Shown here in pieces: positions 37,036 to 52,439 of a stretch of 64,000 bases of DNA. The position numbers and the translations under genes are program-made. The stretch covers positions 358 to 64,357 of the forward strand of contig CAZPAV010000009.1 in assembly GCA_964584755.1 (NCBI GenBank), written 5' to 3'. Each line of letters begins with the position of its first letter. Position 1 is the stretch's first letter. Source of the stretch: an uncultured Acidimicrobiaceae bacterium (GTDB lineage: Bacteria; Actinomycetota; Acidimicrobiia; Spongiisociales; UBA5794). The notes beneath the pieces are model-generated. The model did no database searches and was not told where the DNA came from. It worked only from the letters and a program-made list of their open reading frames with translations.

Positions 37036-38139
37036 TCACGCCGGGACGTAGGCGACGCCGGCGGCGAGGCGGCGGGCGGTTCGCAGGTAGGTGGCCTCCA
37101 CGACGATGCCCGTGGCCGGGTCGATGCGGGCGGTGGCCTCCATGATGCCGCTGGGGTGTCCGATCCGGAGCCGCCCGGAACGAGCCCCGCCGACGGCCTC
37201 GGCGACGACGCTCCCCGGGAGGGCCGCGGCGACCGCGGTCGTTGCCGACACGGTGCCCGGGTACGCCTTGTGGAGGGTCGAGGGCCGGCCGCCGATCACC
37301 CGGGCGCAGAGGTCGGCGTCGGTGATCTCCTCTCCGGCGATGGTCCGGTACGGTGCCGGAGGGGCGACGGCCACGGGCACGGGGACGAGCCCGTCGCCGG
37401 CGATGCCGACGAGGCTCGCCGCGGCGGCCTTGATCGCCTCGACGGCGGCGACGTGCTCGGGGGTGATGTCGCCGGGCCCCTCGGTGCCGGTCAGGCCGGC
37501 GGCCTGGGCCGGGAAGAACACCGAGAGGTTGGCGAGGTCGACGATCGTGGCCTCGACCGGGCCCAGGTCCGTCTCGAGGACGTCCTCGGCGCGTCCCGTC
37601 GGCAGGAGCGCCCCCGTCACCCCTCCCGCCGTGTCGTGGAAGTCGAGGGCGATCGGCGCTCCGGTCCCCGGGACCCCGTCGATGGCCAGGTCGCCCCGCA
37701 CGGCGGCGCGGCCGTCTGCGACGGGCACGCGGGCGACGAGGATCCTCCCGGTGTTCGTGTTGTGGATGCGCACCGTCGTCGCCGGCTCCGTCACCGCGAC
37801 GAGAGCCTCGTCGACGGCGTAGGAGCCCACCGCCGCGGAGATGTTCCCACAGTTGATGTCGTAGTCGACCACCGGCTCGGTGATGGACACCTGCCCGAAG
37901 GTGTAGTCGAGGTCGGCGTCCTCCCGGGAGGCGGGGTCGATGATGGCGAGCTTGCTCGTGAGCAGGTCGGCCCCACCCAGCCCGTCGATCTGGCGGGGGT
38001 CGGGGCTGCCGAACAGCGCCAGGACGAGACGGTCCCGGCGGGGTCCGGGCGGGGGGAGGTCGGCGCCGCGCAGGAACACGGCCTTGCTCGTGCCCCCCCG
38101 CATGAGCACGAAGGGGATGCCGACCTGCTCGGTCGTCAA
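37036..38139 (-). CDS. PrpF/Mii family delta-isomerase
   Basis: MRGGTSKA, QIDGLGGA..LTSK, NCGNISAA, RIHNTNT, RIGHPSG, RTARRL; TTGA overlap with thiolase stop. Confidence 0.9.
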   Translation of the reverse strand: MTTEQVGIPFVLMRGGTSKAVFLRGADLPPPGPRRDRLVLALFGSPDPRQIDGLGGADLLTSKLAIIDPASREDADLDYTFGQVSITEPVVDYDINCGNISAAVGSYAVDEALVAVTEPATTVRIHNTNTGRILVARVPVADGRAAVRGDLAIDGVPGTGAPIALDFHDTAGGVTGALLPTGRAEDVLETDLGPVEATIVDLANLSVFFPAQAAGLTGTEGPGDITPEHVAAVEAIKAAAASLVGIAGDGLVPVPVAVAPPAPYRTIAGEEITDADLCARVIGGRPSTLHKAYPGTVSATTAVAAALPGSVVAEAVGGARSGRLRIGHPSGIMEATARIDPATGIVVEATYLRTARRLAAGVAYVPA

Positions 38140-39278
38140 CGGGTCAGGATCTGCACCGTGCACGCCGCTCCCTCGATCCCCGCGGCCTTGCCGCCCCGGC
38201 AGTGGGCCATCCCGACCTTGGCGTCGGGGATCTGCCGGTTGCCGGCCTCGCCGCGGAGCTGCTTGACCACCTCCACGACCTGGGCCACGCCGGTGGCGCC
38301 GAGGGGATGACCCTTGCCGAGGAGCCCCCCGCTGGGGTTCACCGGGAGGCGGCCGCCGATGTCGGCCTCGCCACGGGCGACGGCCTCGCCGTACCCGCCG
38401 CGGGGGAAGAGCCCGAGCCCCTCGACGCGCAGCGCCTCGGCGATGGTGAAGCAGTCGTGGACCTCGGTGAAGCGGATGTCCTCCGGACCCACGCCGGCTC
38501 GCTCGTACGCGTCCTGGGCGGTGTTCCAGGTGAGCGGCTCGAAGGTCATCGAGGTCGGCTCGGGGTCCACCGTCCCGCTGCGCAGGGCGGAGGCCGCCAG
38601 GCGGATGGCCCGGCCGTTGCCGTGCCGCTTGACGTACTCGCCGCTGGCGAGGATGACCGCGGCGGCCCCGTCGGAGACCGGCGAGCAGTCGAGGAGGTTG
38701 AACGGCTCCGCGATGGGCCGTGAGGAGAGGACGTCCTCGACGGTGATCTCCTTCTTGAACTGGGCGAGGGGGTTGAGGGCCGCGTTCCGCTTGTTCTTCA
38801 CCGAGATGAGCGCGAGCTGCTCGCGGGTCATCCCGAACTCCTCCATGTAGCGGCGGGCCCGCATGGCGTACACCGCGGGCATGGTGGCGCCCACCGCCGC
38901 CTCGGGGTCGTCGTCGCCGGGGGTGAAGGCCCCGCGGAACTTGCCGGTGAGGTGCTCGACGCCGACGGCGAGCGCAACGTCGAACTCGGCGGCGCGGATG
39001 CCGATGTACGCCTCACGGATGGCGGTCGCGCCGCTCGAGCAGGCGTTCTCCACGTTGGCGAGCGGGATGCCGGCGAGGCCGACCTGGGCGAGGATGCGCT
39101 GGCCCGTCACCATGGGCTGGAAGACGTGTCCGGCGTAGGCGGCCTGGATCTCGCGGGGGTCGATCTCGGCGTCGTGCATGGCGGCGCGCACCGCCTCCGA
39201 GCCGAGATCCGGTGCGTTGCGGTCGGGGTGCTTCCCGAAGGGGGTCATCCCGATCCCGATGACGTAGACGTCGGTCAT
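38136..39278 (-). CDS. bbsB: SCP2-type thiolase, benzoylsuccinyl-CoA thiolase BbsB-like
   Basis: ENACSSG, YAMRARRYM, EVHDCF, GHPLGATG, and C-terminal GGKAAGIEGAACT resembling the recalled BbsB tail. Confidence 0.72.
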   Translation of the reverse strand: MTDVYVIGIGMTPFGKHPDRNAPDLGSEAVRAAMHDAEIDPREIQAAYAGHVFQPMVTGQRILAQVGLAGIPLANVENACSSGATAIREAYIGIRAAEFDVALAVGVEHLTGKFRGAFTPGDDDPEAAVGATMPAVYAMRARRYMEEFGMTREQLALISVKNKRNAALNPLAQFKKEITVEDVLSSRPIAEPFNLLDCSPVSDGAAAVILASGEYVKRHGNGRAIRLAASALRSGTVDPEPTSMTFEPLTWNTAQDAYERAGVGPEDIRFTEVHDCFTIAEALRVEGLGLFPRGGYGEAVARGEADIGGRLPVNPSGGLLGKGHPLGATGVAQVVEVVKQLRGEAGNRQIPDAKVGMAHCRGGKAAGIEGAACTVQILTR

Positions 39279-39279
39279 G

Positions 39280-39720
39280 TCACTCCTCGTCGTCGTTCAC
39301 GGGCCGGAAGCGGTAGCCGACGAGCTGCCGTCCGGCGTCGTCCTCGCCCCAGGGCTCCAGGGAGAGCTCAACGGGCATGCCGATGTGGACGTCCTCCGGG
39401 TCGCACCCGGCGATCTGGCCCATCACCCGGAGCTTCTCGGGGAGATCGACGTACCCCAGGACGTAGGGCACCGCGAACTCCGGGGTCGACTGGCGGACGA
39501 TCGTGAAGGTGTACAGGGTGCCGCGGCGCGAGAGGGGAACGGTCTCGACGTCCTCGGTGAGACACCGGGCGCAGAGCTCGCGCTTGGGGAAGTAGTGGGC
39601 GCCGCAGGAACGGCAGCGGCTGCCGATGAGGTAGCCGGTGCCGTCGCCCTCGACGGCGAGCTCGCCGGGTCGGAAGGACACGGGGCGGGCCGCGGCGTCG
39701 ATCGTGCTGGTCTGGCTCAC
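39280..39720 (-). CDS. bbsA: Zn-ribbon/OB-fold (DUF35) thiolase partner, BbsA-like
   Basis: CRSC...CARC, VPLSRRGTLY, PYVLGYVDLPEKLRV; immediately upstream of the thiolase. Confidence 0.72.
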   Translation of the reverse strand: MSQTSTIDAAARPVSFRPGELAVEGDGTGYLIGSRCRSCGAHYFPKRELCARCLTEDVETVPLSRRGTLYTFTIVRQSTPEFAVPYVLGYVDLPEKLRVMGQIAGCDPEDVHIGMPVELSLEPWGEDDAGRQLVGYRFRPVNDDEE

Positions 39721-39809
39721 AGGGTATCGCCTCCCTCTCTCGATGCGTGGGGGAGCCGTCCGGCCGTTCGGTCGAACAGGGACATCGTCTCGCCCCCGCC
39801 CGGGCGGCG

Positions 39810-39990
39810 TCAATGAGGCAAGCGCACCATTTTACCGATGTATCGGGATCAGCGCATGGCACGATCGGAGGCGACGTCCTGCGGCACCACCGACTCCTGA
39901 TGCAATGGTACCACCGAAATGATGCCGTTCGCGGATTGACCGGACGGTGAGGGGCGACGACGCTGATAACCAACCGACCGGCCGGACGGT
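39810..39990. promoter_or_regulatory. Divergent promoter region with operator-like palindromes
   Basis: Minus-strand TAAAAT (39834-29); CCGATGTATCGG palindrome (39835-46); TGACCGGACGGTGA (39937-50). Confidence 0.5.
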
Positions 39991-40015
39991 AGAGGAGCTC
40001 ACGGGAGGTGACACC

Positions 40016-41266
40016 ATGACGGGCGAGACCGAGGCGGGCCGGGAGCGGCGCCTGCTCCACGACTGGAACGTGGTGGGCGGTGGCCCCGAGCCGGGCGTTC
40101 CCGAGGTGGAGCTCGACGACGAGACGTTGCGGGACGGCCTGCAGAGCCCGTCGGTGCGCTGTCCCAGCCTCGAGGAGAAGATCGAGATCCTCCACCGCAT
40201 GGAGGACCTCGGCATCCAGGCGGTCGACATCGGGTACGCCGGCGCCGGGGAGGCGGTCCTCGCCGACGTGGTCGGCCTCGCCGCGGAGATCGACCGCAAC
40301 GGGATGCGCATCGAGCCGAACTGCGCCGGGCGGACCCACCCCGCCGACATCGACCCCATCGCCGAGGCCCAGCAGCGCGCCGGCGTTCGCATCGAGGCGG
40401 CCCTCTTCCTCGGCTCGAGCCCCATCCGCCAGTACGCCGAGGGCTGGGACCTCGACTTCCTCCTCGAAACCACCGAGAAGGCCGTCGCCCACGCCCGGGC
40501 GCTCGACCTCGACGTCATGTACGTCACCGAGGACACGACCCGGGCCCAACCCGAGGTGCTCCGGCGTCTCTACACGACGGCCATCGAGGCGGGTGCCCGC
40601 CGCATCTGCCTCTCCGACACCGTCGGGCACGCCACCCCGTGGGGCGTGCGAAACCTCGTCCGCTTCGCCCGGGAGATCGTCGACGACACCGGCGAGCCGG
40701 TGAAGATCGACTTCCACGGTCACCGGGACCGTGGGCTCGACATCTCCAACGCGCTCGCCGCTCTCGAGGCCGGCGCCAACCGGGTCCACGGCTGCGCCCT
40801 CGGGATCGGCGAACGGGTCGGCAACGCGGCCATGGACGTCCTCCTCGTGAACCTCCGACTCCTCGGCTGGATCGACGCCGACCTCGCCGCCCTCCCCGCC
40901 TACTGCGAGGCGGTCTCCCGGGCCACCGACACCCCCATCCCCCACAACTACCCGGCGGTGGGGAAGGACGCCTTCGAGACGAGCACCGGGGTGCACGCCG
41001 CCGCGGTCCTCAAGGCCCTCCGTCGGGGCGACACGTGGCTCGCCAACCGGGTGTACAGCGGGGTTCCCGCCGACCTCCTCGGCCGCTCCCAGGTCATCAC
41101 GGTGGGTCCCATGAGCGGCCAGGCCAACGCCGAGGCCTGGCTCTTCCAACACGACATCTCCCCGGAGCCGGACCTCGTGCGGCGCATCGTCGCCGCGGCG
41201 AAGGCCTCCGACACGGTCCTCACCGAGGAGCAGATGATGGAGATCGTGGGAGGCGCCCATGCCTGA
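40016..41266 (+). CDS. DRE-TIM acyltransferase, LeuA/homocitrate-synthase-like, without regulatory domain
   Basis: DETLRDGLQ, EDTTRA, LSDTVG, HGHRDRG, GIGERVGN, GVHAAA. Confidence 0.85.
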   Translation: MTGETEAGRERRLLHDWNVVGGGPEPGVPEVELDDETLRDGLQSPSVRCPSLEEKIEILHRMEDLGIQAVDIGYAGAGEAVLADVVGLAAEIDRNGMRIEPNCAGRTHPADIDPIAEAQQRAGVRIEAALFLGSSPIRQYAEGWDLDFLLETTEKAVAHARALDLDVMYVTEDTTRAQPEVLRRLYTTAIEAGARRICLSDTVGHATPWGVRNLVRFAREIVDDTGEPVKIDFHGHRDRGLDISNALAALEAGANRVHGCALGIGERVGNAAMDVLLVNLRLLGWIDADLAALPAYCEAVSRATDTPIPHNYPAVGKDAFETSTGVHAAAVLKALRRGDTWLANRVYSGVPADLLGRSQVITVGPMSGQANAEAWLFQHDISPEPDLVRRIVAAAKASDTVLTEEQMMEIVGGAHA

Positions 41267-43070
41267 GGTCACCGAGGCGCCGACCGCCGTCACCCGGCTC
41301 CTCCTCTCCGGGAACGAAGCCATCGCCCGGGGCGCCTACGAGGCCGGGGTCCGGGTGGCCTCCGGGTACCCGGGCACGCCGAGCACCGAGATCCTCCAGA
41401 CCCTCGGCCGCGAGGAGGCGGTCGACGTCCGCTGGTCCCCCAACGAGAAGGTGGCGCTCGACGTCGCCCTCGGCGCCTCCTTCGGCGGGGCCCGCGCCCT
41501 CGCCACGATGAAGCACGTCGGCCTCAACGTGGCCGCCGACACCTTCATGACCGCGGCGTACACCGGGGTCGGGGCCGGGCTCGTGATCGTCTCCGCCGAC
41601 GACCCCGGGATGCACAGCTCCCAGAACGAGCAGGACAACCGGTACTACGCCCGCTTCGCCGGGGTGCCCCTCCTCGAGCCGTCCGACAGCGCCGAGGCGA
41701 AGGCCGCCACCAAGCTCGCCTTCGCCATCTCGGAGGAGTTCGACACCCCCGTCCTCGTGCGCACGACGACGCGGGTCTCCCACAACCGCGGCGTCGTCGC
41801 CATCGAGCCCCCCGAGGATCCCCCCGCGGGCGGCTTCCGGCGCAACCCCCAGAAGTACGTCATGCTGCCCGGGCACGCCCGCCGCCGTCACCCCGTCCTG
41901 CTCGACCGCCTCGAGCGGCTCACCCGGTACGTCGAGGAGAGCCCCCTCACCGTCGCGGTGGGCACCGACGACCGGGTCGGGGTCGTCACCGCCGGGATTC
42001 CGTACCACTACGTGCGGGAGGTGCTCCCCGACGCCCGCATCCTCAAGCTGGGGATGAGCTTCCCCCTCCCCGTGGAGCGGATCCGGGAGTTCGCCGCCTC
42101 CGTGGAGCGACTCTTCGTCGTCGAGGAGCTCGAGCCCTTCCTCGAGGACGCGATCCGGGCCGCCGGCATCGCCGTGGAGGGCAAGGCCTTCTTCCCCCGC
42201 ATCGGGGAGCTCACACCCGACATCGTCCACGACGGCTTCGCCCTCGCCGGCGTCCTCCCGCCCCGCACCGCGGTCGACCCAGGGCCGGACACGGTGGTCC
42301 GTCCGCCGCTGCTGTGTCCCGGATGTCCCCACACGGTGCCGTTCCTCGCCCTCAAGCGTCTCGAGGCCACGGTCACCGGCGACATCGGCTGCTACACGCT
42401 CGCCGCGCTCGAGCCGCTCGCCTCCATGGACACCTGTGTCGCCATGGGCGCCAGCATCGGCGCCGCCATCGGCCTCGACGCCAGTGGAGGCGTCGACGGT
42501 CCCATCGTCGCCACGATCGGAGACTCGACGTTCCTCCACGGCGGGATCCAGGGGCTCATGGACGCGGTGTACGCCGACGCCGACATCACCGTGGTCATCC
42601 TCGACAACGGGACGGTGGCGATGACCGGCGGCCAGCCCCACCCCGGGACGGGGGTGACGCTCAAGGGCGATCCGGCCCGGCCGGTCGACATCCCGGCCCT
42701 CTGCCGGGCGCTGGGGGTGGAGGACGTCCACACCGTCGATCCCTACGACGTGGCGGCGACGTTCCGGGCCCTCGAGGCGGCGATCGCCCACCCCGGTCCC
42801 TCGGTCGTCATCACGAACCGGCCCTGCGTCGAGGCGCCTCGGAAGGTGCGGGATCTCCCCTACCGGGTCGAGCTCGCCGACTGCATCGCCTGTCAGGCGT
42901 GCACGACCCTGGGATGCCCCTCCATCGTCTGGGCCGAGGAGACGTACGAGGGACGCCGCAAGGTCGTCATCGACTCGACCACCTGCACCGGCTGCACGCT
43001 CTGCGCCCAGCTCTGCGCGCCGCGGGCCATCGTCCCGGTCGAGCCCGAGGAAGGAGGAGATCGTGGCTGA
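41259..43070 (+). CDS. iorA: Indolepyruvate/arylpyruvate:ferredoxin oxidoreductase alpha
   Basis: LSGNEAIARG, YPGTPSTEI, MKHVGLNVA, SSQNEQD, LCPGCPH, GDIGCY, IGDSTF, two C-terminal 4Fe-4S motifs. Confidence 0.95.
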   Translation: MPEVTEAPTAVTRLLLSGNEAIARGAYEAGVRVASGYPGTPSTEILQTLGREEAVDVRWSPNEKVALDVALGASFGGARALATMKHVGLNVAADTFMTAAYTGVGAGLVIVSADDPGMHSSQNEQDNRYYARFAGVPLLEPSDSAEAKAATKLAFAISEEFDTPVLVRTTTRVSHNRGVVAIEPPEDPPAGGFRRNPQKYVMLPGHARRRHPVLLDRLERLTRYVEESPLTVAVGTDDRVGVVTAGIPYHYVREVLPDARILKLGMSFPLPVERIREFAASVERLFVVEELEPFLEDAIRAAGIAVEGKAFFPRIGELTPDIVHDGFALAGVLPPRTAVDPGPDTVVRPPLLCPGCPHTVPFLALKRLEATVTGDIGCYTLAALEPLASMDTCVAMGASIGAAIGLDASGGVDGPIVATIGDSTFLHGGIQGLMDAVYADADITVVILDNGTVAMTGGQPHPGTGVTLKGDPARPVDIPALCRALGVEDVHTVDPYDVAATFRALEAAIAHPGPSVVITNRPCVEAPRKVRDLPYRVELADCIACQACTTLGCPSIVWAEETYEGRRKVVIDSTTCTGCTLCAQLCAPRAIVPVEPEEGGDRG

Positions 43071-43923
43071 GGACGTGCGGGGGATCCTCCTCGCCGGCGT
43101 CGGTGGGCAGGGGGTCATCATGGCGAGCATGGTGGTCGCCGAGGCGTGCCTCCAGGCCGGCTACGACGTCAAGCAGAGCGAGGTCCACGGCATGGCCCAG
43201 CGGGGCGGATCCGTGTTCAGCCACCTGCGCTTCGGGCCCGAGGTCTCCAGCCCGCTCGTTCCCCTCGGCTCGGCCACCGTCCTGGCGGCCTTCGAGTGGG
43301 CCGAGGGGCTCCGCTGGCTCCCGTACGTCTCCCCCGAGGGGGCGGTCGTCGCCGACGTGCGACGCATCGTGCCCCCCGGCGCCTGCCGGGACCACCGCAC
43401 CTGGGTGGAGACGTACCCCGCCCGCTACGAGCAGGTCCTGCGGGAGCGAGCCGCGGCGGTGCGGCTCCTCGACGCCAGCGCCATGGCGCGTGAGCTCGGG
43501 AACGTCCGGGCGGCGAACAGCGTCGTCCTCGGTGCCGTCGCCAACTTCCTCGACCTCCCCGAGGTGTGCTGGGAGAAGGCGATCGCCCGTCGGGTCCCGC
43601 CGCACACCGTCGACGTGAACCTCGAGGCGTTCCATCTCGGCCGGGAGGCCCCCTCCCTCACGCTGCCCGAGCCGGAGCCACTCCCGCCCGTCCCCACGGG
43701 CTCGCCCCGGATCCATCTCGACCGGTCCTGGTGCAAGGACTGCGGGATCTGCCCCCGGGTCTGCCCCGAGTACTGCCTCGCCATGGACGAGCACGGGCGC
43801 CTGGCGATCGTGGCGCCGGAGGCCTGCACCGGCTGCCGGCTCTGCGAGCTGCTGTGTCCCGACTTCGCCATCACCATCGATCGGGACCCCGTCCCGGTCC
43901 CTGCCGGGAAAGGGGAGCGATGA
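43063..43923 (+). CDS. iorB: IOR beta subunit fused to a C-terminal 2x[4Fe-4S] ferredoxin (KorD-like)
   Basis: GVGGQG, SEVHGMAQRGGSV, NSVVLG, NLEAF..G; then CKDCGICPRVCP and CTGCRLCELLCP. Confidence 0.9.
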   Translation: MAEDVRGILLAGVGGQGVIMASMVVAEACLQAGYDVKQSEVHGMAQRGGSVFSHLRFGPEVSSPLVPLGSATVLAAFEWAEGLRWLPYVSPEGAVVADVRRIVPPGACRDHRTWVETYPARYEQVLRERAAAVRLLDASAMARELGNVRAANSVVLGAVANFLDLPEVCWEKAIARRVPPHTVDVNLEAFHLGREAPSLTLPEPEPLPPVPTGSPRIHLDRSWCKDCGICPRVCPEYCLAMDEHGRLAIVAPEACTGCRLCELLCPDFAITIDRDPVPVPAGKGER

Positions 43924-45068
43924 GCACACCACGGCTCGTTCAGGGCAACGAGGCCTGCGTCCTCGGGGCGCTCGCCGCCGGGTGCCGCTTCTTCGCGGGG
44001 TACCCGATCACCCCCTCGTCGGAGATCGCCGAGCTCATGTCCCGCGAGCTGCCCCGTCGCGGCGGCGCGTTCATCCAGATGGAGGACGAGATCGGATCGC
44101 TCGCCGCCGTCCTCGGCGCCTCTCTCGCCGGGACCAAGGCGATGACCGCCACCAGCGGGCCCGGCTTCTCCCTCATGCAGGAGCACATCGGGTTCGGCGC
44201 CATCGCCGAGATCCCCTGCGTGGTCGTCGACGTCATGCGCGGCGGGCCCAGCACGGGACGGCCCACCTCCCCCTCCCAGGGCGACGTCATGCAGGCCCGG
44301 TGGGGGACGCACGGCGACCACCCCGCCATCGTGCTCGCCCCCGCGACGGTGCGCGAGGTCTTCGACCTGACGGTGCGCGCCTTCGACCTCGCCGAGCGGT
44401 TCCGGATGCCGATCATCCTCCTCTACGACGAGATCCTCGGCCACACCCGGGAGGGGGTGACCCTCCCGAGCGAGGTCGAGACCGTCGAGCGGGTCCGGCC
44501 CACGGTGCCTCCCGAGGAGTTCTGGCCGAAGGCGGCGCCACCCGACGGCGTCCCGCCCCTGCCCGCCTTCGGCGACGGGTACCGCTTCCACGTCACGGGC
44601 CTCACCCACGACGAGCGGGGCTTCCCGACGAACGACGCCGCCGAGGCGGGCGCGCTCATGGAGCGGCTCCGGCGCAAGGTCGAGGACCACCTCGACGAGG
44701 TCCGCGACGTCGAGACCTTCCACACCGAGGACGCCGACGTGGTGGTCTTCGCCTACGGCACGGTGGGCCGGGCGGCACGGGAGGCGGTGGTGCGAGCCCG
44801 GGCCCGCGGCGTGCGGGCCGGGCTGCTGCGGCCCCGCACCCTCTGGCCCTTCCCCGAGGAGGAGGTGGCCGCGCTCGCGGCGCGGACCGGCGCCATCCTC
44901 GTGGCGGAGATGAACCAGGGTCAGCTCCTCCGCGAGGTGGAACGGGCGGCGGGCGGTCGGTGCGAGATCGCCACCCACCTGCGCGCCGACGGGGAGGCCA
45001 TCGTGCCCGCCGAGCTGCTCGAGGTGCTGTCGGCGCGGATCCCGGTCTCGGGAGGAGGTGGCGCATGA
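43920..45068 (+). CDS. korA: 2-oxoacid:ferredoxin oxidoreductase alpha (KorA-like)
   Basis: QGNEAC, FAGYPITPSSEIAE, QMEDEIGS, TATSGPGFSLMQE, RGGPSTG, EMNQGQ. Confidence 0.93.
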   Translation: MSTPRLVQGNEACVLGALAAGCRFFAGYPITPSSEIAELMSRELPRRGGAFIQMEDEIGSLAAVLGASLAGTKAMTATSGPGFSLMQEHIGFGAIAEIPCVVVDVMRGGPSTGRPTSPSQGDVMQARWGTHGDHPAIVLAPATVREVFDLTVRAFDLAERFRMPIILLYDEILGHTREGVTLPSEVETVERVRPTVPPEEFWPKAAPPDGVPPLPAFGDGYRFHVTGLTHDERGFPTNDAAEAGALMERLRRKVEDHLDEVRDVETFHTEDADVVVFAYGTVGRAAREAVVRARARGVRAGLLRPRTLWPFPEEEVAALAARTGAILVAEMNQGQLLREVERAAGGRCEIATHLRADGEAIVPAELLEVLSARIPVSGGGGA

Positions 45069-45886
45069 TCGACGTTCGAACCTACCTGCGCGAGTGGGCG
45101 ATGCCTCACGTCCTCTGTCCCGGGTGCGCCCACGGCATCGTCCTCCACGGGCTCCTCGAGGCCATCGACCGACGCGGGCTCGACCGCGACGAGGTGGCGA
45201 TGGTCGCCGGGATCGGGTGCAGCAGCCGGCTCGTCGGCTACGTCGACTTCTGCACGCTGCACACCACCCACGGGCGGGCTCCCGCGTTCGCCACCGGCCT
45301 GAAGCTCGCCCGTCCCGAGCTCACCGTCATCGTCATCTCCGGGGACGGGGACGGGCTCGCCATCGGGGGCAACCACCTCATCCACGCCGCGCGCCGCAAC
45401 GTGGACATCACGGTCCTCCTCTTCAACAACGCCATCTACGGGATGACCGGAGGGCAGGTGGCGCCGACGACCCCCCGCGGCGCCATCGCCACCACGGCCC
45501 GCGCCGGCAACACCGAGCCACCCTTCGACCCCTGCCGGCTCCTCGTGGGTGCCGGTGCCTCCTTCGTGGCTCGCGCCATGGCCGCCGAGCCCCTGAAGAT
45601 GGCCGACATCGTGGAGCAGGCCCTCGCCCACCGTGGGTTCTCCTTCATCGAGGTCGTCAGCGACTGCCCCGAGTACTTCGGTCGCTACAACAAGCTGGGT
45701 CGCGGCGCGGAGCTCCTCTCCCTCATGACCCGGCGCGACGAGCGGATCGCCGGACCGCTCGCCGCCAAGGCGTCGGTGCCGCACGTGCCGGCGCCCGAGC
45801 TCCTCGACGGCCTCGAGCTGGGGATCCTCCATCGGGAGGAACGGCCGGTCTTCACCGGGCGAGGGGCGGGAGGAGGCGGACGATGA
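45065..45886 (+). CDS. korB: 2-oxoacid:ferredoxin oxidoreductase beta (KorB-like)
   Basis: CPGCAHG, GIGCSSR, HGRAPAFATG, GDGDGLAIGGNH, NNAIYGMTGGQ. Confidence 0.93.
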   Translation: MIDVRTYLREWAMPHVLCPGCAHGIVLHGLLEAIDRRGLDRDEVAMVAGIGCSSRLVGYVDFCTLHTTHGRAPAFATGLKLARPELTVIVISGDGDGLAIGGNHLIHAARRNVDITVLLFNNAIYGMTGGQVAPTTPRGAIATTARAGNTEPPFDPCRLLVGAGASFVARAMAAEPLKMADIVEQALAHRGFSFIEVVSDCPEYFGRYNKLGRGAELLSLMTRRDERIAGPLAAKASVPHVPAPELLDGLELGILHREERPVFTGRGAGGGGR

Positions 45887-46425
45887 GCCGCCGCCTCGAC
45901 CTGCGTCTCGCCGGGGCCGGCGGCCAGGGCGTCGCCCTCGCCGGCCGCATCCTCGCCGAGGCGGCGTTGCGCTCAGGGCGCGAGGCCGCCTACTCGCAGG
46001 CGTACGGGCCCGCCTCCCGGGGCGGGGCCAGCCACGCCGACGTCGTGATCGCCGCAGGCGAGATCGGCTGGCCCCTCGCCGAGTCCATCGGCGTGCTCGT
46101 CGCGGTTTCGGGGGCGGCGTACGCGAAGTACGCTCCCGGGGTGGAAGCCGGGACGACGGTCGTCGCCGACACCGAGGCGATCGACCCCGAGACCCCCACC
46201 GCGGGGACCCTCCGCTCCTTCCCGATCGTGGCCACGGCCCGGCGGATCGGCGGGGGGCCGATCCTCAGCGGCGTGGTCGCCCTCGGGGTCCTCCAGGGCC
46301 TCGTCGGCCTCGTCGACGAGGCCGCCCTCGAGGAGGCGCTCGCCTCTCGGGTCCCGTCCGACCGGCGCGAGATGAACCTGCGCGCCCTGGCCGAGGGGCG
46401 CCTGCTGGCGAACGGAGGTCGATGA
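45883..46425 (+). CDS. korC: 2-oxoacid:ferredoxin oxidoreductase gamma (KorC-like)
   Basis: AGAGGQGV, SQAYGPASRGG, MNLRALAEG. Confidence 0.88.
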   Translation: MSRRLDLRLAGAGGQGVALAGRILAEAALRSGREAAYSQAYGPASRGGASHADVVIAAGEIGWPLAESIGVLVAVSGAAYAKYAPGVEAGTTVVADTEAIDPETPTAGTLRSFPIVATARRIGGGPILSGVVALGVLQGLVGLVDEAALEEALASRVPSDRREMNLRALAEGRLLANGGR

Positions 46426-47036
46426 TGACCGTCGAGGCGACCGAGGCCACCGCGGACGTCGGGACGGGCGAGCGCATCCGGCGTGCCGCCGCCGCGCTCT
46501 TCCGGGAGAAGGGCTTCAACGGGACGAGCATGGCCGACCTCGCCGCCGCGGTCGGCATCACGAAGTCGAGCCTGTACCACCACTTCTCCTCGAAGCAGGC
46601 GCTGCTCCTCGAGATCCTCGAGCTCACCGTCGACCGGGTGACCCCGGCGTTGCGGGCCGTAGCCGAATCGGAACGACCCGCCACCGAGCGGCTCCGCCGG
46701 GCGGTCGTCATGCACGTCGTCGAAGGGCTCCGCGACCGGGACAACCTCGCCTGCTTCGTCGAGGAGGGCCGGTACCTCGAACCGGCGTACATGGAGGCGT
46801 ACGTCGCCAAGCGCGACCGCTACGAGCACTACGTGCGCCGCATCATCCGCGACGGCATCGCCTCGGGCGAGTTCCGTCCCGTCGATCCCCGCCTCACCGC
46901 GATGGCCATTCTCGGCATGGCGAACTCGGCGGTTCGCTGGTACCGGCCGGAGGGCGACTACACGCCGGAGGAGATCGGGGCGTCGTTCGCCGAGCTCGTC
47001 GTCGACGGGCTCCTCGCCGGAGGCGCCCCCACATGA
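46422..47036 (+). CDS. TetR/AcrR family transcriptional regulator
   Basis: [33 protein letters not shown]; C-terminal WYRP. Confidence 0.93.
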
Positions 47037-48256
47037 GCGGCGCGCTGGCGGGCATCCGGATCCTGGATCTCTCCCAGGGCGCGGCCGGGCCCATCGCCAC
47101 CATGTTCCTCGGCGACCTCGGTGCCGAGGTCGTCAAGGTGGAACCACCGGGAGGGGAGTGGGGCCGGGGACTCGGTCCGCCCTTCCTCGGGGGGACCGCG
47201 GCGGCCTTCGTGGGGATGAACCGCAACAAGCGGGGCATCGTCGTCGACCTGAAGCGCCCCGGTGGCAGCGAGGTGGTGGCCCGCCTCGCCGAGGGGTGCG
47301 ACGCCATGCTGGAGAGCTTCCGTCCCGGCGTCGCCGACCGGCTCGGCGTCGGGTACGCCGCGCTCTCCCCGCGCAACCCTCGCCTCGTCTACGCGACGAT
47401 CTCGGCCTTCGGTCAGGAGGGCCCGTGGCGGAACCGCCCCGGGGTCGACGGCATCGTGCAGGCGGTCGGGGGGATCATGAGCGTCACCGGGACCGAGGAC
47501 GGGACCCCCGTCAAGGTGGGGGTGCCCGCCGCCGACATGGTCGCCGGGATCTTCGCCTCCCAGGCGATCGTCGCCGCCCTCTACGCCCGGGAGCGGACCG
47601 GCGCCGGCCAGCGCGTCGACCTCTCCCTCCTCGAGTCGCTCCTCGCCTTCCAGGTCGTGCCCCTCTCCATGTACCTCGCCTCGGGACGGCCGCCTCGTCG
47701 CATGGGGAGCGCCGCGCCGTACTCGGCGCCCAACGAGGCCTTCCGCACCGCCGACGGGTGGATCCAGGTCGCCGCCTACACGCCCCGTCGCTGGCCGGCC
47801 CTGTGCGCCGTCCTGGGGCGTCCCGAGCTCGCCACCGATCCCCGCTTCGACACGAACGCCGGGCGCGTCGAGCGACGGGGGGAGCTCCACGCCGAGCTGG
47901 AGGCGGCGTTCGCGACCCGCACGACGAAGGAGTGGCTCGCCGAGCTCGAGGCGGTCGACGTCCTCTGCGGGCCGATCCTCTCCTACCCGGAGCTCCTCGC
48001 CGAGGACCACCTCGCCCGGATCGACGCCCTCCCGACCTTCACCCAGCCCGGCGTGGGGGAGCTGCGGGCGGTGCGGAACCCGGCCCGCTTCTCCGATACC
48101 GGGGCGGTGCACCGGCGGCCCGCGCCGTTGCGTCCCGGGGAGGACACCCGCGAGGTGCTCGCCGCCGCCGGGTTCGCCGCCGACGAGATCGCCGAGCTCG
48201 TGGCCCGGGGCGTCGTCTCCGCGCCCGAGGAACCGAACGGAAAGGAGGAGCCGTGA
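47033..48256 (+). CDS. Family III CoA-transferase (CaiB/BaiF)
   Basis: [39 protein letters not shown] with catalytic Asp, APNEAFRT. Confidence 0.93.
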
Positions 48257-49068
48257 CGACCGCCGGCACCAGCTCGAACGCCCCCGAGGCGCCGGTCCTG
48301 TGGGAACGGGACGGCGCGGTGGGGATCATCACCCTCAATCGTCCGCAGGCGCTCAACGCCCTCACCGTCGAGATGCTCGAGACGATGGAGCGGATCGTCG
48401 CCGACGCGGAGGGGGACCCCGACCTGCGGGTGCTCGTGCTCACCGCCTCGGGCGAGAAGGCGTTCTGCGTCGGCGCCGACCTCAAGGCCCGCGCCGCCGA
48501 GTACGAGGCGGGTACGGTGCACGACCCGCTCGGGGACCTCATCCGCCGGGTCCAGCGACGGTTCGAGACGAGCGACAAGCCGATCATCGCCGCCCTCTTC
48601 GGCTACGTCCTCGGCGGGGGCCTCGAGATGGCCCTCGCCTGTGACCTGCGAGTGGCCACCGAGGGGGCCCAGCTCGGCTTCCCGGAGGCGCGGGTGGGGA
48701 GCATGCCGGGGGTGGGGGGCACTCAGCGGACGACGCGACTCGTCGGCGCGTCCCGGGCGAAGGAGCTCATGTTCACCGGGGAGCGGATCCGCGCCGAGCA
48801 GGCCCTGCAGTGGGGGCTCGTCAACCGGGTCGTGCCCGAGGGCACGCTCATGGAGGCGACCCGGGAGCTCGCCGGGAAGGTCGCGGCGAACGCGCCGCTG
48901 TCGCTGGGGCGCATCAAGGCGGCGGTGAACCGGGCGGCGGACGTCGATCTCGACACCGGGCTCGCGTTCGAGGCGATGTGTCACGCCGTGCTCAGGCACA
49001 GCGAGGACCGCAAGGAGGGTATCCAGGCCTTCGTGGACAAGCGGAAGCCCGTGTTCAAGGGTCGTTGA
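48253..49068 (+). CDS. Enoyl-CoA hydratase (two catalytic Glu)
   Basis: [40 protein letters not shown]. Confidence 0.92.
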
Positions 49069-49081
49069 GGAGGTCGAGAAG

Positions 49082-49816
49082 GTGAACGTCAGCAATCGGG
49101 TCGCGATCGTGACCGGGGCCGGCCAGGGGATCGGCGAGGGGATCGCGCGCGCCTTCGCGGCGCGCGGGGCGAAGGTCGTCGTCAACGACGTGGTCGCCGA
49201 CCGTGCCGCGGCGGTGGCCGAGGACCTCGGGGGGAACGGGGTGGCGATCCCCGCCGACATCTCGGTGGCGGAGGGGGCGAACGAGCTCGTGGCGAAGGCC
49301 ACCGAGGCCTTCGGCCAGGTGGACGTGCTCGTGAACAACGCCGGGATCTCCCGCCCCGGGTACGTGGCGAAGATGAGCGACGAGGACTGGGAGAGCGTCC
49401 TCAAGGTGAACCTCACCGCCCAGTTCCTCACCTGCCGGGCCGTCATCCCCCAGATGATGGAGCGGAAGTGGGGCCGGATCGTCAACATCTCCTCCCGGGC
49501 GTGGCTCGGGGGGGCGGGACAGGCGAACTACTCGGCGTCGAAGGGCGGCGTCGTCAGCCTCACCCGCAGCCTCGCGCTCGAGCTCGCCCGCTTCGGGATC
49601 ACGGTGAACGCCGTCGCCCCCGCGCTCGTCGACACCCCGCTCTTCCAGGGCCTCAAGGACGAGATCAAGGAGAAGCTGGTGAAGACGATCCCGATGCGCC
49701 GGGTGGGGACGCCAGACGACATCGCCAACGCGGTGCTCTTCTTCGCGGCCGAGGAGTCGGCGTACGTCACCGGCCAGCTCCTGTACGTCTGCGGCGGCCG
49801 TAGCCTCGGGGCGTGA
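49082..49816 (+). CDS. SDR, resembling BbsD (2-[hydroxy(phenyl)methyl]succinyl-CoA dehydrogenase)
   Basis: NRVAIVTG, GRIVNISSRAWLGGAGQANYS, PDDIAN, VTGQLLYVCGGRSL. Confidence 0.85.
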   Translation: MNVSNRVAIVTGAGQGIGEGIARAFAARGAKVVVNDVVADRAAAVAEDLGGNGVAIPADISVAEGANELVAKATEAFGQVDVLVNNAGISRPGYVAKMSDEDWESVLKVNLTAQFLTCRAVIPQMMERKWGRIVNISSRAWLGGAGQANYSASKGGVVSLTRSLALELARFGITVNAVAPALVDTPLFQGLKDEIKEKLVKTIPMRRVGTPDDIANAVLFFAAEESAYVTGQLLYVCGGRSLGA

Positions 49817-49832
49817 CCACGGGGACGACGCC

Positions 49833-51092
49833 ATGGGCATGACCGTCGCGGAGAAGATCCTCGCCCGGGCCTCGGGCCGGGCGTCCGTGCGCGCCGGGGA
49901 GTTCGTCGTCGCCGAGATCGATCTGGCGATGACCCACGACATCTTCGCGGCGACGGTCTTCGACGCCCTGCTCGACCTCGGCCGGGAGAAGGTGTTCGAC
50001 CCGGCGAAGGTCGCGGTCGTCATCGACCACCTCGTCCCCGCGCCGTCCGCCCAGGCGGCGGCGATCCACCATCGCATCCGGGAGCACGTCGAGCGGTTCG
50101 GGATCGGGATCTTCTACGACGCCGGGGAGGGCATCTCGCACCAGCTCCTCCCGGAGCGGGGCCACATCCGACCCGGGATGCTCGTGGTCGGAACGGACTC
50201 CCACACCACCACCTACGGTGCGCTCGGTGCCGCGGGGACGGGCGTGGGCACGTCCGACATGGTGTACGCGCTCGCCACCGGGCGGCTCTGGTTCCGGGTT
50301 CCCGAGACCATCCGCTTCGAGCTCGCCGGCGCCCTCGAGCCGCTCGTCTCCTGGAAGGACGTCGTGCTCGCCATCGCGGGGCGGATCGGGAGCGACGGTG
50401 CCCAGTACCGGGCCCTCGAGTTCGGTGGGCCCGGCGTGGCGTCGGCGCCGGTCTCGGGCCGTCTCACGGTGGCGAACATGGCCGTCGAGCTGGGGGCGAA
50501 GTTCGGGATCTTCCCCGCCGACGAGTGCACCTTCGCGTACCTCGGGGAGGAGACCCCGGGGGCGCCACGGCCCGATCCGGACGCGGCGTACCTCACCGTC
50601 GAGGAGCTCGAACTCGCCACGCTCGGACCGCAGGTGGCGCTCCCCTCCGACGTCGACCGGGTGACGGCGGTGCGGGACGCGGAGCCGGTACGGATCGACC
50701 AGGCGTTCCTCGGGTCCTGCACCAACGGGCGGCTCGACGACCTCCAGGCCGCCGCCGCCATCCTCCGGGGGCGGAAGGTCGCCCCGGGGGTGCGACTCCT
50801 CGTGGCCCCGGCGTCCCGCCGCGTCCTCGAGGCGGCGCTCGCCGACGGGACCGTCGCCACGCTCGTCGCGGCGGGCGCCACGCTCCTCGCCGCGGGGTGC
50901 GGGCCCTGCTTCGGCGGCCACGGCGGGCTCCTCGCTCCCGGCGAGCGATGCGTCTCGACGAGCAATCGGAACTTCGTGGGACGCATGGGATCCCCCGCGG
51001 CCGAGATCTACCTCGCCTCGCCCGCCACCGTGGCCGCCTCGGCGGTGGCGGGGCGGCTCGTCGACCCCAGGGAGGTGCAGGATGGCCGCTGA
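49833..51092 (+). CDS. leuC: LeuC/HacA-family hydro-lyase large subunit
   Basis: DHLVP, GTDSHT, FLGSCTNGR, GCGPCFG, STSNRNFVGRMG. Confidence 0.92.
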   Translation: MGMTVAEKILARASGRASVRAGEFVVAEIDLAMTHDIFAATVFDALLDLGREKVFDPAKVAVVIDHLVPAPSAQAAAIHHRIREHVERFGIGIFYDAGEGISHQLLPERGHIRPGMLVVGTDSHTTTYGALGAAGTGVGTSDMVYALATGRLWFRVPETIRFELAGALEPLVSWKDVVLAIAGRIGSDGAQYRALEFGGPGVASAPVSGRLTVANMAVELGAKFGIFPADECTFAYLGEETPGAPRPDPDAAYLTVEELELATLGPQVALPSDVDRVTAVRDAEPVRIDQAFLGSCTNGRLDDLQAAAAILRGRKVAPGVRLLVAPASRRVLEAALADGTVATLVAAGATLLAAGCGPCFGGHGGLLAPGERCVSTSNRNFVGRMGSPAAEIYLASPATVAASAVAGRLVDPREVQDGR

Positions 51093-51579
51093 CGTCGTGC
51101 GGGGCCGGGCCTGGTGCTTCGGTGACGACATCAGCACCGACCTGCTCTCGCCGGGGGCGTACGCGGTCGATCCCGTCGAGGTCCGGAAGCTCCACGTCCT
51201 CGAGTCGGTGAACCCGTCCTTCGCCGCCGAGGTCCGACCCGGGGACGTGGTGGTGGCCGGGAGGAACTTCGGCTGTGGCTCGAGCCGGGAGACGGCGCCG
51301 GAGAACCTCGCCGCGCTCGGCGTCTCGTGCGTGGTCGCCTCGTCGCTGGCCCGCATCTTCCTGCGCAACGCCGTGGCGATCGGTCTCCCCGTGCTCATCT
51401 GCCCCGGCGTCGACGCCGCGGTCCACGACGGAGACGAGGTGGAGGTCGACCTGGGCGCGGGGACCGTCCGGGTGCTGCCCGACGGCCCGACGCTCCGAGG
51501 GGAGGGTCTCCCCGAGGCGATGCGGGAGATCCTCGCCGCCGGCGGCATCCTCGCCGTGCTCCGCTCCGGAGAGGGGTGA
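51082..51579 (+). CDS. leuD: LeuD/HacB-family hydro-lyase small subunit
   Basis: FGDDISTD, AGRNFGCGSSRE, ARIFLRNAVAIGLP. Confidence 0.92.
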   Translation: MAADVVRGRAWCFGDDISTDLLSPGAYAVDPVEVRKLHVLESVNPSFAAEVRPGDVVVAGRNFGCGSSRETAPENLAALGVSCVVASSLARIFLRNAVAIGLPVLICPGVDAAVHDGDEVEVDLGAGTVRVLPDGPTLRGEGLPEAMREILAAGGILAVLRSGEG

Positions 51580-52349: not shown

Positions 52350-52368
52350 GCGGGCCCGTCTCCCGGCC

Positions 52369-52395: not shown

Positions 52396-52439
52396 ACTCG
52401 GCGGCGACCATGGGCGCTCGTCGAGCGAGGAGGGGATCG

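Follow-up and report, generated by a model that had tools for sequence, protein, structure and literature searches.

Which pathway is encoded where relatives of the leucine-type enzymes LeuA, LeuC and LeuD are combined in one gene cluster with relatives of the benzylsuccinate beta-oxidation (Bbs) enzymes? The question is raised by positions 37036-51579 of a 64,000-nucleotide contig stretch from an uncultured Acidimicrobiaceae bacterium; this whole stretch is called the window below. An initial annotation of the DNA had proposed a route from arylpyruvate to aroyl-CoA. Our analysis points to a real, conserved and probably novel pathway. We give roughly even chances to the reading that the cluster shortens the side chain of aromatic 2-oxoacids independently of oxygen and fumarate, via arylmethylmalate and arylidenesuccinyl-CoA, to aroyl-CoA and succinyl-CoA. 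The most likely substrates would be 4-hydroxyphenylpyruvate and phenylpyruvate. Conservation of the cluster, the closest solved structures and an alanine gatekeeper in the synthase support the route as first proposed; a BbsEF-like CoA-transferase and family scores at the level of true Bbs proteins, in contrast, were not found. Full-text literature searches returned no published description of such a route, and none had been known to the initial annotation either.

Because of the GC content of about 73%, raw lists of open reading frames (ORFs) from the window were crowded with spurious frames. Genes were called by third-position GC and a log-odds codon model built from confidently identified genes, and starts were set with ribosome-binding sites. 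Protein families were scored with Pfam and NCBIfam, and closest relatives were obtained by a sequence search against all solved structures. The cluster contains the following features.

37036-38139/38163, minus strand: PrpF-family isomerase, similar to 3-methylitaconate isomerase (Mii) (PF04303 (PrpF) 344 bits)
38136-39278, minus strand: SCP2-type thiolase, BbsB-like (nucleophilic Cys80, HDCF motif)
39280-39720, minus strand: DUF35 Zn-ribbon/OB protein, BbsA-like (OB_ChsH2_C 81 bits, zf-ChsH2 41 bits)
39721-40015: divergent intergenic region, predicted promoter (295 bp, GC below the flanks, short palindromes)
40016-41266, plus strand: LeuA-like Claisen-condensing synthase, 416 aa (HMGL-like 148 bits, without the LeuA_dimer domain)
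41259-43070, plus strand: IorA, alpha subunit of indolepyruvate:ferredoxin oxidoreductase (IOR) (TIGR03336 683 bits, above the cut-off of 651)
43063-43923, plus strand: IorB fused to an OorD/KorD-like 2x[4Fe-4S] delta domain (POR residues 14-195, Fer4 residues 217-272)
43920-45068, plus strand: alpha subunit of a 2-oxoacid:ferredoxin oxidoreductase (OFOR) (NF006412 555 bits, above the cut-off of 411)
45065-45886, plus strand: OFOR beta subunit (KorB-type 274 bits, below the cut-off of 364)
45883-46425, plus strand: OFOR gamma subunit (118 bits, below the cut-off of 235)
46422-47036, plus strand: TetR-family regulator (TetR_N, TetR_C_24)
47033-48256, plus strand: family III CoA-transferase (CoA_transf_3 428 bits)
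48253-49068, plus strand: crotonase-family enoyl-CoA hydratase (ECH_1 226 bits)
49082-49816, plus strand: short-chain dehydrogenase/reductase (SDR), BbsD-like (adh_short_C2 221 bits)
49833-51092, plus strand: LeuC/HacA/DmdA-type large subunit (Aconitase 341 bits; NF001614 544 bits, above the cut-off of 385)
51082-51579, plus strand: LeuD/DmdB-type small subunit (TIGR02087 'LeuD/DmdB family' 165.5 bits, above the cut-off of 109)

Every gene that the initial annotation had named for the two divergent operons was recovered with Pfam and NCBIfam, and the shared promoter region it had placed at 39.8-40.0 kb coincides with the 295-bp spacer. The twelve rightward genes are tightly packed: nine of the eleven junctions overlap by 4-11 nt, among them the overlap of the IorA gene with the LeuA-like stop codon by 8 nt, and short gaps of 13 and 16 nt separate the genes at the remaining two. 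On the minus strand the order from the spacer is DUF35, SCP2-type thiolase and PrpF-family gene, followed on the same strand by genes similar to hcrCAB; the DUF35 and thiolase genes lie 1 nt apart. The cluster belongs to an island of about 37 kb for anaerobic aromatic degradation, with housekeeping genes on its flanks. The closest homologues belong to Acidimicrobiia metagenome-assembled genomes (MAGs). In metagenomes of hydrothermal vents and microbial mats, the source organism reached an assembler word depth of about 6-25x.

In the proposed pathway, the LeuA-like synthase would condense arylpyruvate with acetyl-CoA to 2-(arylmethyl)malate, which the LeuCD-like dehydratase would convert to arylmethylmaleate with loss of water. 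The Mii-like isomerase would then bring the double bond into conjugation with the aromatic ring, interconverting arylmethylmaleate and arylidenesuccinate (phenylitaconate). With succinyl-CoA as donor, the family III CoA-transferase would form arylidenesuccinyl-CoA. This thioester would be hydrated by the crotonase in a BbsH-like step, and the resulting alcohol would be oxidized by the BbsD-like SDR, acting as 2-(alpha-hydroxyarylmethyl)succinyl-CoA dehydrogenase. Thiolase and DUF35 protein together, like BbsAB, would finally cleave aroylsuccinyl-CoA to aroyl-CoA and succinyl-CoA. The free-acid enzymes and the CoA-ester enzymes of this order are divided by exactly one CoA-transferase. We infer each catalytic step, the substrate and the direction of the IOR from gene content, conservation, closest relatives and residue patterns. 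The scheme of the initial annotation is the only one we found that uses all nine genes conserved without exception, as described below, with no missing enzyme. It also predicts the absence of LeuB and BbsG, which the initial annotation had reported missing from the window; accordingly, no Iso_dh (LeuB) protein, acyl-CoA dehydrogenase or glycyl-radical enzyme is present among the genes annotated across the 64 kb.

A scan for relatives with one genome per GTDB species yielded at least 578 stretches encoding LeuA-like relatives, and a metagenome scan seeded on a basal Bacillota-type LeuA-like sequence gave 80 further loci, mostly solitary genes of a sister clade from soils, and added four cluster loci. 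All window proteins were compared by tblastn with 164 loci (L001-L164). The cluster was found in 30 of these, about 27 of them distinct, in uncultured bacteria that are mostly Actinomycetota; the sources are Acidimicrobiia, Microthrix, Thermoleophilia, Gaiellaceae, Armatimonadota, MAGs labelled 'Acidobacteria' and one Bacillota MAG. The combination thus recurs as the proposal of the initial annotation would require, with neither bss nor bbsG in reach. Nine core genes, encoding the LeuA-like synthase, LeuC, LeuD, PrpF-like isomerase, CoA-transferase, crotonase, SDR, thiolase and DUF35 protein, keep a conserved order, and all nine are present wherever the locus extends far enough (L010, L012, L017, L018, L021, L061, L089 and L090). 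Two other MAGs have the identical 15-gene arrangement. The Bacillota locus L061 is a single-strand operon in the order HcrCAB-LeuCD-PaaK-LeuA-like-IorAB-OFOR-CoA-transferase-crotonase-SDR-DUF35-thiolase-PrpF, where PaaK denotes an arylacetate-CoA ligase-like protein.

IOR and OFOR are present or absent together, and the core is kept without them in L017, L019, L021 and L026. In L017 the nine core genes have another order and strand arrangement. In L019 a class I/II aminotransferase and a Liv-type transporter stand in place of IOR/OFOR. The Gaiellaceae MAG of L021 encodes, at 11232-11906 between the LeuA-like gene and the TetR gene, a 224-aa ORF with only the POR_N part of IorA. This relic indicates secondary loss of IOR/OFOR from a formerly complete cluster, and since the core survives without them, the nine genes seem to be maintained as one unit independent of IOR/OFOR. 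Neither LeuB nor an acyl-CoA dehydrogenase belongs to the conserved genes; both are missing from the annotated neighbours in L001 and L003/L004, and no glycyl-radical enzyme occurs among those of L001, L003/L004, L017, L019, L021 and L027. An acyl-CoA dehydrogenase was seen near the cluster in two variants, L021 and L027.

The final steps of the proposed pathway are represented by proteins whose nearest relatives of solved structure are Bbs enzymes. The thiolase is closest to BbsB (7pxp_C, 298 bits, 43% identity), followed by an SCP2-thiolase at 247 bits. The DUF35 protein, with a CxxC...CxxC motif, is closest to BbsA (7pxp_A, 83 bits), which is also its only NCBIfam match. Together they represent an SCP2-type Cys thiolase with a separate DUF35 subunit, for which BbsAB is the nearest characterized pair. 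A retro-aldolase of the Ltp2/Sal type was ruled out by the Cys nucleophile and the SCP2-type HDCF motif, which identify the enzyme as a thiolase (PMC12329534). For the SDR, BbsD (7pcs_B) scored 245 bits compared with about 200 bits for FabG proteins. The Bbs-like character that the initial annotation had assigned to thiolase and SDR thus holds at the level of closest solved structures, for BbsB, BbsA and BbsD alike, and fails at the NCBIfam equivalog cut-offs. For the crotonase and the CoA-transferase the predicted families stood, with 226 bits for ECH_1 and 428 bits for CoA_transf_3, but no particular likeness to BbsH or BbsEF emerged; the best crotonase matches were generic, and the transferase was closest to SUGCT, formyl-CoA-transferase-like proteins and YfdE (256-231 bits), with Rv3272-type proteins down to 223 bits. 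By these scores, the cluster proteins are best described as relatives rather than members of the Bbs, PrpF and LeuA equivalog families.

For the first step, residues of the LeuA-like synthase were placed by alignment to isopropylmalate synthase (IPMS) from N. meningitidis (3rmj) and to homocitrate synthases (HCS; 6ktq, 3a9i). A ribosome-binding site GGAGG precedes the ATG at 40016; the ORF could begin at 39947. The closest structures were IPMS 3rmj (119 bits) and HCS (114 bits), from which the protein is about equally distant. All catalytic residues are kept, namely R39/D40, E172, T202 (DTVG motif), H234/H236 (HxH) and H327 (SGxH motif), and they are invariant in an alignment of relatives (A1). 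This residue set places the enzyme among the Claisen-condensing DRE-TIM enzymes (LeuA/IPMS, HCS and citramalate synthase), whereas score and gatekeeper place it outside the specific IPMS, citramalate synthase and HCS families. Its Ala104 aligns with L81 of the N. meningitidis enzyme, counted along the 3rmj alignment, and hence with A73 of the benzylmalate synthase HphA. A mutagenesis study lists five selectivity positions in HphA (A73/D157/A159/M186/S242), of which A73 is the gatekeeper; the exchange A73L raises activity with 2-ketoisovalerate 95-fold (PMC12961565). The pocket signatures compare as follows.

HphA: A73/D157/A159/M186/S242
IPMS: L81/E145/S147/N176/E234
HCS: H/R/T/S/H
LeuA-like enzyme of the window: A104/M168/V170/C198/H258

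At the two positions where HCS contacts the distal carboxylate with Arg and Thr (Ser135 in TtHCS), the window enzyme has Met and Val. The pocket is predicted to be hydrophobic, with a gatekeeper as small as that of HphA. More than 100 close relatives with 65-79% identity are annotated only as 'LeuA family protein', and the cluster-linked sequences form one clade in a neighbor-joining tree. A second, canonical synthase is encoded near the end of the window.

56350-57963, minus strand: canonical LeuA/CimA-type synthase, 537 aa (HMGL-like, HCS_D2 and LeuA_dimer domains)

This protein is probably the housekeeping enzyme. Its presence indicates that the cluster synthase is an extra, specialized copy, and a housekeeping LeuA was thereby ruled out as the cluster synthase. 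Other assignments of the synthase were also considered. Homocitrate synthase was ruled out, as the enzyme lacks the Arg, His and Thr/Ser that bind the carboxylate and no Arg is present in the LeuD loop. A citramalate-to-itaconate route was rejected too, as it fits poorly with the small gatekeeper, and hydration of itaconyl-CoA would give a tertiary alcohol and leave SDR and thiolase useless. Condensation of an arylacetyl-CoA nucleophile with glyoxylate, giving phenylglyoxylate for the OFORs, was set aside as it leaves SDR and thiolase unexplained; to our knowledge, no member of the LeuA-like family uses a donor other than acetyl-CoA.

The second and third steps were assigned to the LeuCD-like and PrpF-like proteins. 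Both LeuCD-like subunits exceed their subfamily cut-offs and belong to the archaeal type of the two-subunit LeuCD/HacAB/DmdAB dehydratases. At the stricter LeuC equivalog TIGR02083 the large subunit scored 461 bits against a cut-off of 611, and the small subunit reached 137.5 bits against 246 for LeuD. The large subunit is closest in structure to the isopropylmalate/citramalate isomerase of M. jannaschii (415 bits). The specificity loop of the small subunit reads YAVD, without Arg; for the M. jannaschii proteins we take the corresponding motifs to be YLVM and YLRT. The PrpF-family protein had been annotated as an isomerase of the Mii type, and this was borne out: Mii (3g7k) is the closest structure with 321 bits, compared with 221 for PrpF and 207 for GalD-type proteins. 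The catalytic Lys/Cys pair is present as K71 and C105, 34 residues apart, which would presumably correspond to K62/C96 in Mii. With this pair and Mii as nearest relative, the protein falls in the Mii-type PrpF family.

The product of the pathway and its supply with substrate are suggested by the genes around and within the cluster.

36420-36884, minus strand: HcrC-like gamma subunit of a molybdenum hydroxylase (168 bits, cut-off 258)
34030-36423, minus strand: HcrA-like alpha subunit (best match 4-hydroxybenzoyl-CoA reductase alpha, full length, 863 bits, cut-off 995)
33059-34033, minus strand: HcrB-like beta subunit (best match 4-hydroxybenzoyl-CoA reductase beta, full length, 277 bits, cut-off 405)
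23153-24448, plus strand: PaaK-like arylacetate-CoA ligase, outside 37036-51579 (AMP-binding_C_2; PaaK models 263 and 223 bits, below the cut-offs)
18881-23037: four genes similar to class I benzoyl-CoA reductase (BCR) (two BcrAD_BadFG and two HGD-D proteins; best matches BcrC/B/A, below the cut-offs)

The HcrB-like subunit carries a Cys-rich insert of about 40 aa with five Cys. The HcrCAB-like enzyme is probably a 4-hydroxybenzoyl-CoA reductase acting on the pathway product; it would dehydroxylate 4-hydroxybenzoyl-CoA to benzoyl-CoA for the neighbouring BCR. HcrCAB-like genes adjoin the PrpF gene in 10-11 other loci, and in L001 the end of the PrpF gene and the start of the HcrC gene share 4 nt, so that the two are translationally coupled. 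BCR genes are adjacent in L007, L010 and L020. The initial annotation had read the neighbouring hcrCAB as a hint of a 4-hydroxy substrate. The linkage itself is seen in these loci and the L061 operon, and its repetition suggests 4-hydroxy substrates, i.e. tyrosine or 4-hydroxyphenylacetate; phenyl analogues are also likely. The PaaK-like ligase, likewise noted at first reading, is a candidate for the entry enzyme. Ligases beside or inside the cluster in L003, L005 and L011 share 70-72% identity with it, and such a ligase lies inside or heads the operon in L005, L024, L027, L028 and L061, immediately upstream of the synthase in the first four.

Two ways of entry can be envisaged. Arylpyruvate could arise by transamination of Tyr or Phe, or the PaaK-like ligase could activate arylacetate to arylacetyl-CoA, from which the IOR would form arylpyruvate as a reductive carboxylase, a direction that we only infer. 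The IOR assignment is firm for the alpha subunit, which exceeds its equivalog cut-off. IorB scores 216 bits, just below the beta equivalog cut-off of 237, probably due to the fused C-terminal domain. That domain contains the CxxCxxCxxxC motif twice (Cys224-234 and Cys255-265) and matches the OorD and OGOR_delta models; followed by OFOR alpha, beta and gamma, it gives what we take to be the oorDABC order. Among the 119 other matches listed, 115 have the fusion, and the other four are recorded with the POR domain only. The fusion also occurs in L001, L003 and the Bacillota locus L061 and is thus kept across phyla. It suggests a physical complex of IOR and OFOR, through which low-potential electrons for the IOR would come from the adjacent OFOR. 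The genes first called KorABC do encode OFOR alpha, beta and gamma subunits (43920-46425), but could not be assigned to 2-oxoglutarate; the OFOR might equally serve the BCR. The fusion, the joint gain or loss of IOR/OFOR and the ligase within operons suggest that IOR/OFOR and ligase are an optional, plausible entry module for arylacetate. A role of IOR in the use of aryl acids for assimilation is known from Methanococcus maripaludis (Porat et al., as cited in PMC4162585). A more specific version, in which the IOR is wired to the OorDABC-type OFOR via the fused ferredoxin and carboxylates arylacetyl-CoA as a 2-oxoacid-driven 'carboxylase', the arylpyruvate then passing through arylmethylmalate and arylidenesuccinate to aroyl-CoA and succinate, is tentative and, in our estimate, rather unlikely.

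The TetR gene keeps its position in other loci. Within the spacer, the segment 39800-39960 is locally AT-richer and a short palindrome, CCGATGTATCGG, is found around 39836-39847. This palindrome could be a candidate operator of the TetR-family regulator.

Several observations weigh against the arylidenesuccinyl-CoA route. The LeuA-like protein reaches no LeuA-type equivalog (best NCBIfam match 186 bits, cut-offs of at least 414) and, compared through the published positions, shares only the gatekeeper Ala among the five selectivity positions of HphA. Its large sister clade (52-61% identity; Acidobacteriota, Bacteroidota, Gemmatimonadota, Planctomycetota and other phyla) has the signature A/M/V/V/H, almost the same pocket, with no cluster genes within 10 kb. 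These genes (L029-L084 and most of L085-L164) are always solitary, with housekeeping-like neighbours such as M20 peptidase, aldehyde dehydrogenase, amidohydrolase and TruA. Because the sister clade shares the pocket without the cluster, the pocket is not pathway-specific, and our confidence in the arylpyruvate assignment was lowered; either partner genes lie elsewhere in those genomes, or the substrate of the family is more general. The PrpF and OMA-tautomerase equivalog cut-offs of NCBIfam were not reached by the isomerase, and those of BbsB and BbsA were missed widely (314 bits, cut-off 750; 95 bits, cut-off 250). At residues 274-277 the thiolase has HDCF where BbsB of Geobacter metallireducens (7pxp_C) has HDAF at the aligned site. 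The CoA-transferase is a single gene nearer to SUGCT/YfdE than to BbsF (152 bits) or BbsE (135 bits), and does not form a two-subunit BbsEF enzyme. The SDR likewise is a single gene in the window and in all loci, whereas BbsCD is a heteromer of two SDR paralogues. The crotonase has only generic best matches, e.g. 3-hydroxypropionyl-CoA dehydratase with 241 bits. Unless it runs in reverse, the IOR would compete with the synthase for arylpyruvate, and the role given to the OFOR is ad hoc. A search of one metatranscriptome of the same sample returned only spurious matches of 18-25 nt. Finally, L027 (3035-6660; 'Ca. Thermofontivivens primus') combines LeuCD-PaaK-LeuA-like-IorAB-OFOR-TetR with a 525-aa AMP-ligase, a crotonase, an acyl-CoA dehydrogenase and Liv-type transporter genes, and PrpF, CoA-transferase, SDR and thiolase were not found within 10 kb. 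It may represent a different downstream route. L025 and L028 were rejected as further variants without the beta-oxidation module, since their contigs end there, which leaves L027 as the only real candidate.

In one alternative, the same chemistry, from 2-alkylmalate via alkylidenesuccinyl-CoA to acyl-CoA and succinyl-CoA, would act mainly on non-aromatic 2-oxoacids with a beta-CH2 group, such as 2-oxobutyrate, 2-oxoisocaproate or 4-methylthio-2-oxobutyrate, as a general disposal of acyl-CoAs that cannot be beta-oxidized, the aromatic neighbours being one use among several. The hydrophobic pocket with its small gatekeeper and single HphA-like position would allow this, as would the near-identical pocket of the huge solitary sister clade in soil phyla outside any aromatic context, the generic 2-oxoacid/Kor-Vor type of the second OFOR, the generic crotonase and CoA-transferase, and the Liv-type ABC transporters beside several loci. 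A non-aromatic substrate is nevertheless unlikely given a bona fide IOR by equivalog cut-off, HcrCAB-like genes co-operonic or translationally coupled in many loci, PaaK-like ligases in the operon, BCR genes beside several loci, and a thiolase, DUF35 protein and SDR that are nearest to aromatic Bbs enzymes. The two oxidoreductases would find a natural role, together with the IorB fusion, in one-carbon chain elongation. In that route IOR would form arylpyruvate by reductive carboxylation of arylacetyl-CoA, the LeuA-like synthase, LeuCD and a housekeeping LeuB would extend it to 2-oxo-4-arylbutyrate, and OFOR would produce 3-arylpropionyl-CoA, returning its electrons to IOR through the fused ferredoxin domain; acyl-CoA dehydrogenase, crotonase, SDR and thiolase would then complete beta-oxidation to aroyl-CoA and acetyl-CoA. 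The constant co-occurrence of IOR and OFOR fits well, as does a PaaK-like ligase within the operon, and L027 has acyl-CoA dehydrogenase and crotonase beside LeuCD-PaaK-LeuA-like-IOR-OFOR with PrpF, CoA-transferase and thiolase out of reach. BbsD- and BbsB-like enzymes could plausibly take 3-hydroxy-3-arylpropionyl-CoA and aroylacetyl-CoA. Chain elongation, however, requires LeuB and acyl-CoA dehydrogenase, neither of which was found in the window or in the annotated full-cluster loci L001 and L003/L004, leaves the strictly conserved Mii-like isomerase and a dicarboxylate-type CoA-transferase idle, and would be broken in the four loci where the core is intact after loss of IOR/OFOR. We consider it quite unlikely, and the results favour the arylidenesuccinyl-CoA route over it.

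The independent loss of IOR/OFOR also raises the question of whether the genes form a single pathway at all. In a mosaic of separate modules, IOR would oxidize arylpyruvates to arylacetyl-CoA, OFOR would reduce ferredoxin for BCR, and CoA-transferase, crotonase, SDR and thiolase would beta-oxidize acids of the phenylpropanoid type, with LeuA-like, LeuCD and PrpF-like proteins doing something unrelated. Each family has such roles elsewhere, and BCR genes are nearby. We see only a slim chance for this arrangement: translational coupling ties the twelve rightward genes together, the core of nine genes co-varies as one block in different phyla, even where it is rearranged (L017, L061), and the leftover trio of LeuA-like, LeuCD and Mii-like proteins has no known stand-alone function. 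The resemblance of the best matches to BbsA, BbsB and BbsD would finally suit conventional fumarate addition, from toluene or p-cresol via (hydroxy)benzylsuccinate into Bbs beta-oxidation, with glycyl-radical synthase and BbsG encoded elsewhere, and HcrCAB-like genes would suit a p-cresol route. Glycyl-radical synthase and BbsG were, however, found in no annotated gene of the window, L001, L003 or L004; a glycyl-radical enzyme is likewise missing from the annotated neighbours of L017, L019, L021 and L027, and acyl-CoA dehydrogenase from the same gene sets except L021 and L027. The conserved LeuA-like, LeuCD, Mii-like, IOR and PaaK genes would be unexplained and the CoA-transferase is not BbsEF-like, which makes fumarate addition very improbable. 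The arylidenesuccinyl-CoA route is thus retained as the best explanation at hand.

The remainder of the aromatic island and the flanks contain further genes. At 15456-23037 the BCR-like set lies beside an Oah/BadI-like crotonase, a two-subunit family I CoA-transferase, an SDR and a TetR regulator. The region 24989-31861 resembles anaerobic phenol activation, with UbiX, an IclR regulator, a UbiD protein, a HAD phosphatase and phenylphosphate-synthase-like genes. The UbiD protein, the single subunit of this type, has phenylphosphate carboxylase beta as best match (426 bits, cut-off 469).

28800-31861: phenylphosphate-synthase-like genes (PPDK_N and PEP-utilizer proteins)

Between the phenylphosphate-synthase-like genes and an SDR, a 157-aa ORF at 31866-32339 has good coding statistics and no Pfam match. 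Directly downstream of LeuD, 51678-56344 encodes a PAS-LuxR regulator, which may act on the cluster, followed by the nitrogen-regulation genes amt and glnB and a GlnD-like gene. At 9332-14794, genes for an L-amino-acid-ligase-like ATP-grasp protein, a NifU-domain protein, a Mem_trans transporter, a GNAT acetyltransferase and a PLP-dependent decarboxylase may form a small biosynthetic locus. No PadBCD homologue of the DMSO-reductase type was seen in the window.

If the proposed route operates, it would be a third anaerobic way to remove a side chain of the phenylacetate or tyrosine type, besides Pad alpha-oxidation and fumarate addition with Bbs beta-oxidation. A 2-oxoacid elongation front end would be joined to a Bbs-type back end through a methylitaconate-type isomerase, and the benzylidenesuccinyl-CoA of toluene catabolism would be reached without a glycyl-radical enzyme. 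The route would need no oxygen, membrane molybdoenzyme or radical enzyme and would yield succinate instead of CO2; if the wired IOR also proves true, the carboxyl carbon of the side chain would not be lost but be kept, together with one CO2 and acetyl-CoA, in a C4 acid. This would alter carbon and energy balances for the turnover of aromatic amino acids and of lignin- and protein-derived aryl acids in anoxic sediments, vents and groundwater. The IorB-ferredoxin fusion offers a testable model of electron coupling between two 2-oxoacid oxidoreductases. Functions would also be provided for the large 'LeuA family protein' clade, for Mii-like proteins outside nicotinate fermenters and for BbsAB/BbsD-like genes. 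A bbsA homologue in MAGs related to Acidimicrobiia has been read as a toluene-degradation gene (PMC12008989), and surveys in which bbs genes count as a sign of hydrocarbon degradation would have to be corrected.

The route would be a new combination of known enzyme families rather than a new kind of chemistry. Its proposed last four steps, from CoA transfer to thiolysis, are those of benzylsuccinate beta-oxidation in Thauera, Aromatoleum and Geobacter, for which the steps beyond benzylidenesuccinyl-CoA are established (PMC10818641). The cluster shares with that system the closest solved structures of its thiolase, DUF35 protein and SDR (BbsB, BbsA and BbsD), but lacks benzylsuccinate synthase and BbsG, and the enoyl intermediate would derive from a 2-oxoacid and acetyl-CoA rather than from a hydrocarbon and fumarate. 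Where Bbs uses BbsC plus BbsD, BbsE plus BbsF and a thiolase with HDAF, the cluster has one SDR, one SUGCT-like CoA-transferase and HDCF. The front end resembles HphA-HphCD-HphB of Nostoc punctiforme, and plant MAM/IPMI chain elongation, in combining a LeuA-family synthase that lacks the regulatory domain with a LeuCD-type enzyme. The HphA pathway to homophenylalanine and homotyrosine forms benzylmalate, as is proposed here, from phenylpyruvate or 4-hydroxyphenylpyruvate with a synthase that has the gatekeeper Ala (PMC12961565). It differs in that the cluster lacks the HphB/LeuB step, the maleate would be drained by the isomerase, the context is catabolic and four of the five selectivity positions are different.

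In nicotinate fermentation, Mii and DmdAB-type hydratases interconvert diacids of the itaconate, maleate and malate types. The pairing of a PrpF-family isomerase with a LeuCD-type hydratase in Eubacterium barkeri is the same as here, and the small subunit falls in the 'LeuD/DmdB' family. In the cluster, by contrast, the proposed direction is opposite, from malate via maleate to itaconate type, the substituent would be an aryl group, and a synthase is added upstream and a CoA-dependent beta-oxidation downstream. For the entry reaction, the IOR of M. maripaludis is a precedent for converting aryl acids to arylpyruvates (as cited in PMC4162585); the arylpyruvate is transaminated there, whereas it would be catabolized here. 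In Thauera aromatica, 2-oxoglutarate:ferredoxin oxidoreductase (KGOR) is the ferredoxin reductant for BCR and is encoded with aromatic catabolic genes. The cluster differs from both the KGOR and the IOR precedents in that IOR and an OorDABC-like OFOR are adjacent and the delta ferredoxin is fused to IorB. The same overall task is performed with entirely different enzymes by Pad alpha-oxidation in Thauera and Aromatoleum (PadJ, PadBCD, PadEFGHI), which converts arylacetate or arylpyruvate to aroyl-CoA without oxygen and feeds HcrCAB and BCR. There, the carboxyl carbon leaves as CO2 via phenylglyoxylate, whereas the route proposed here would retain it in succinate.

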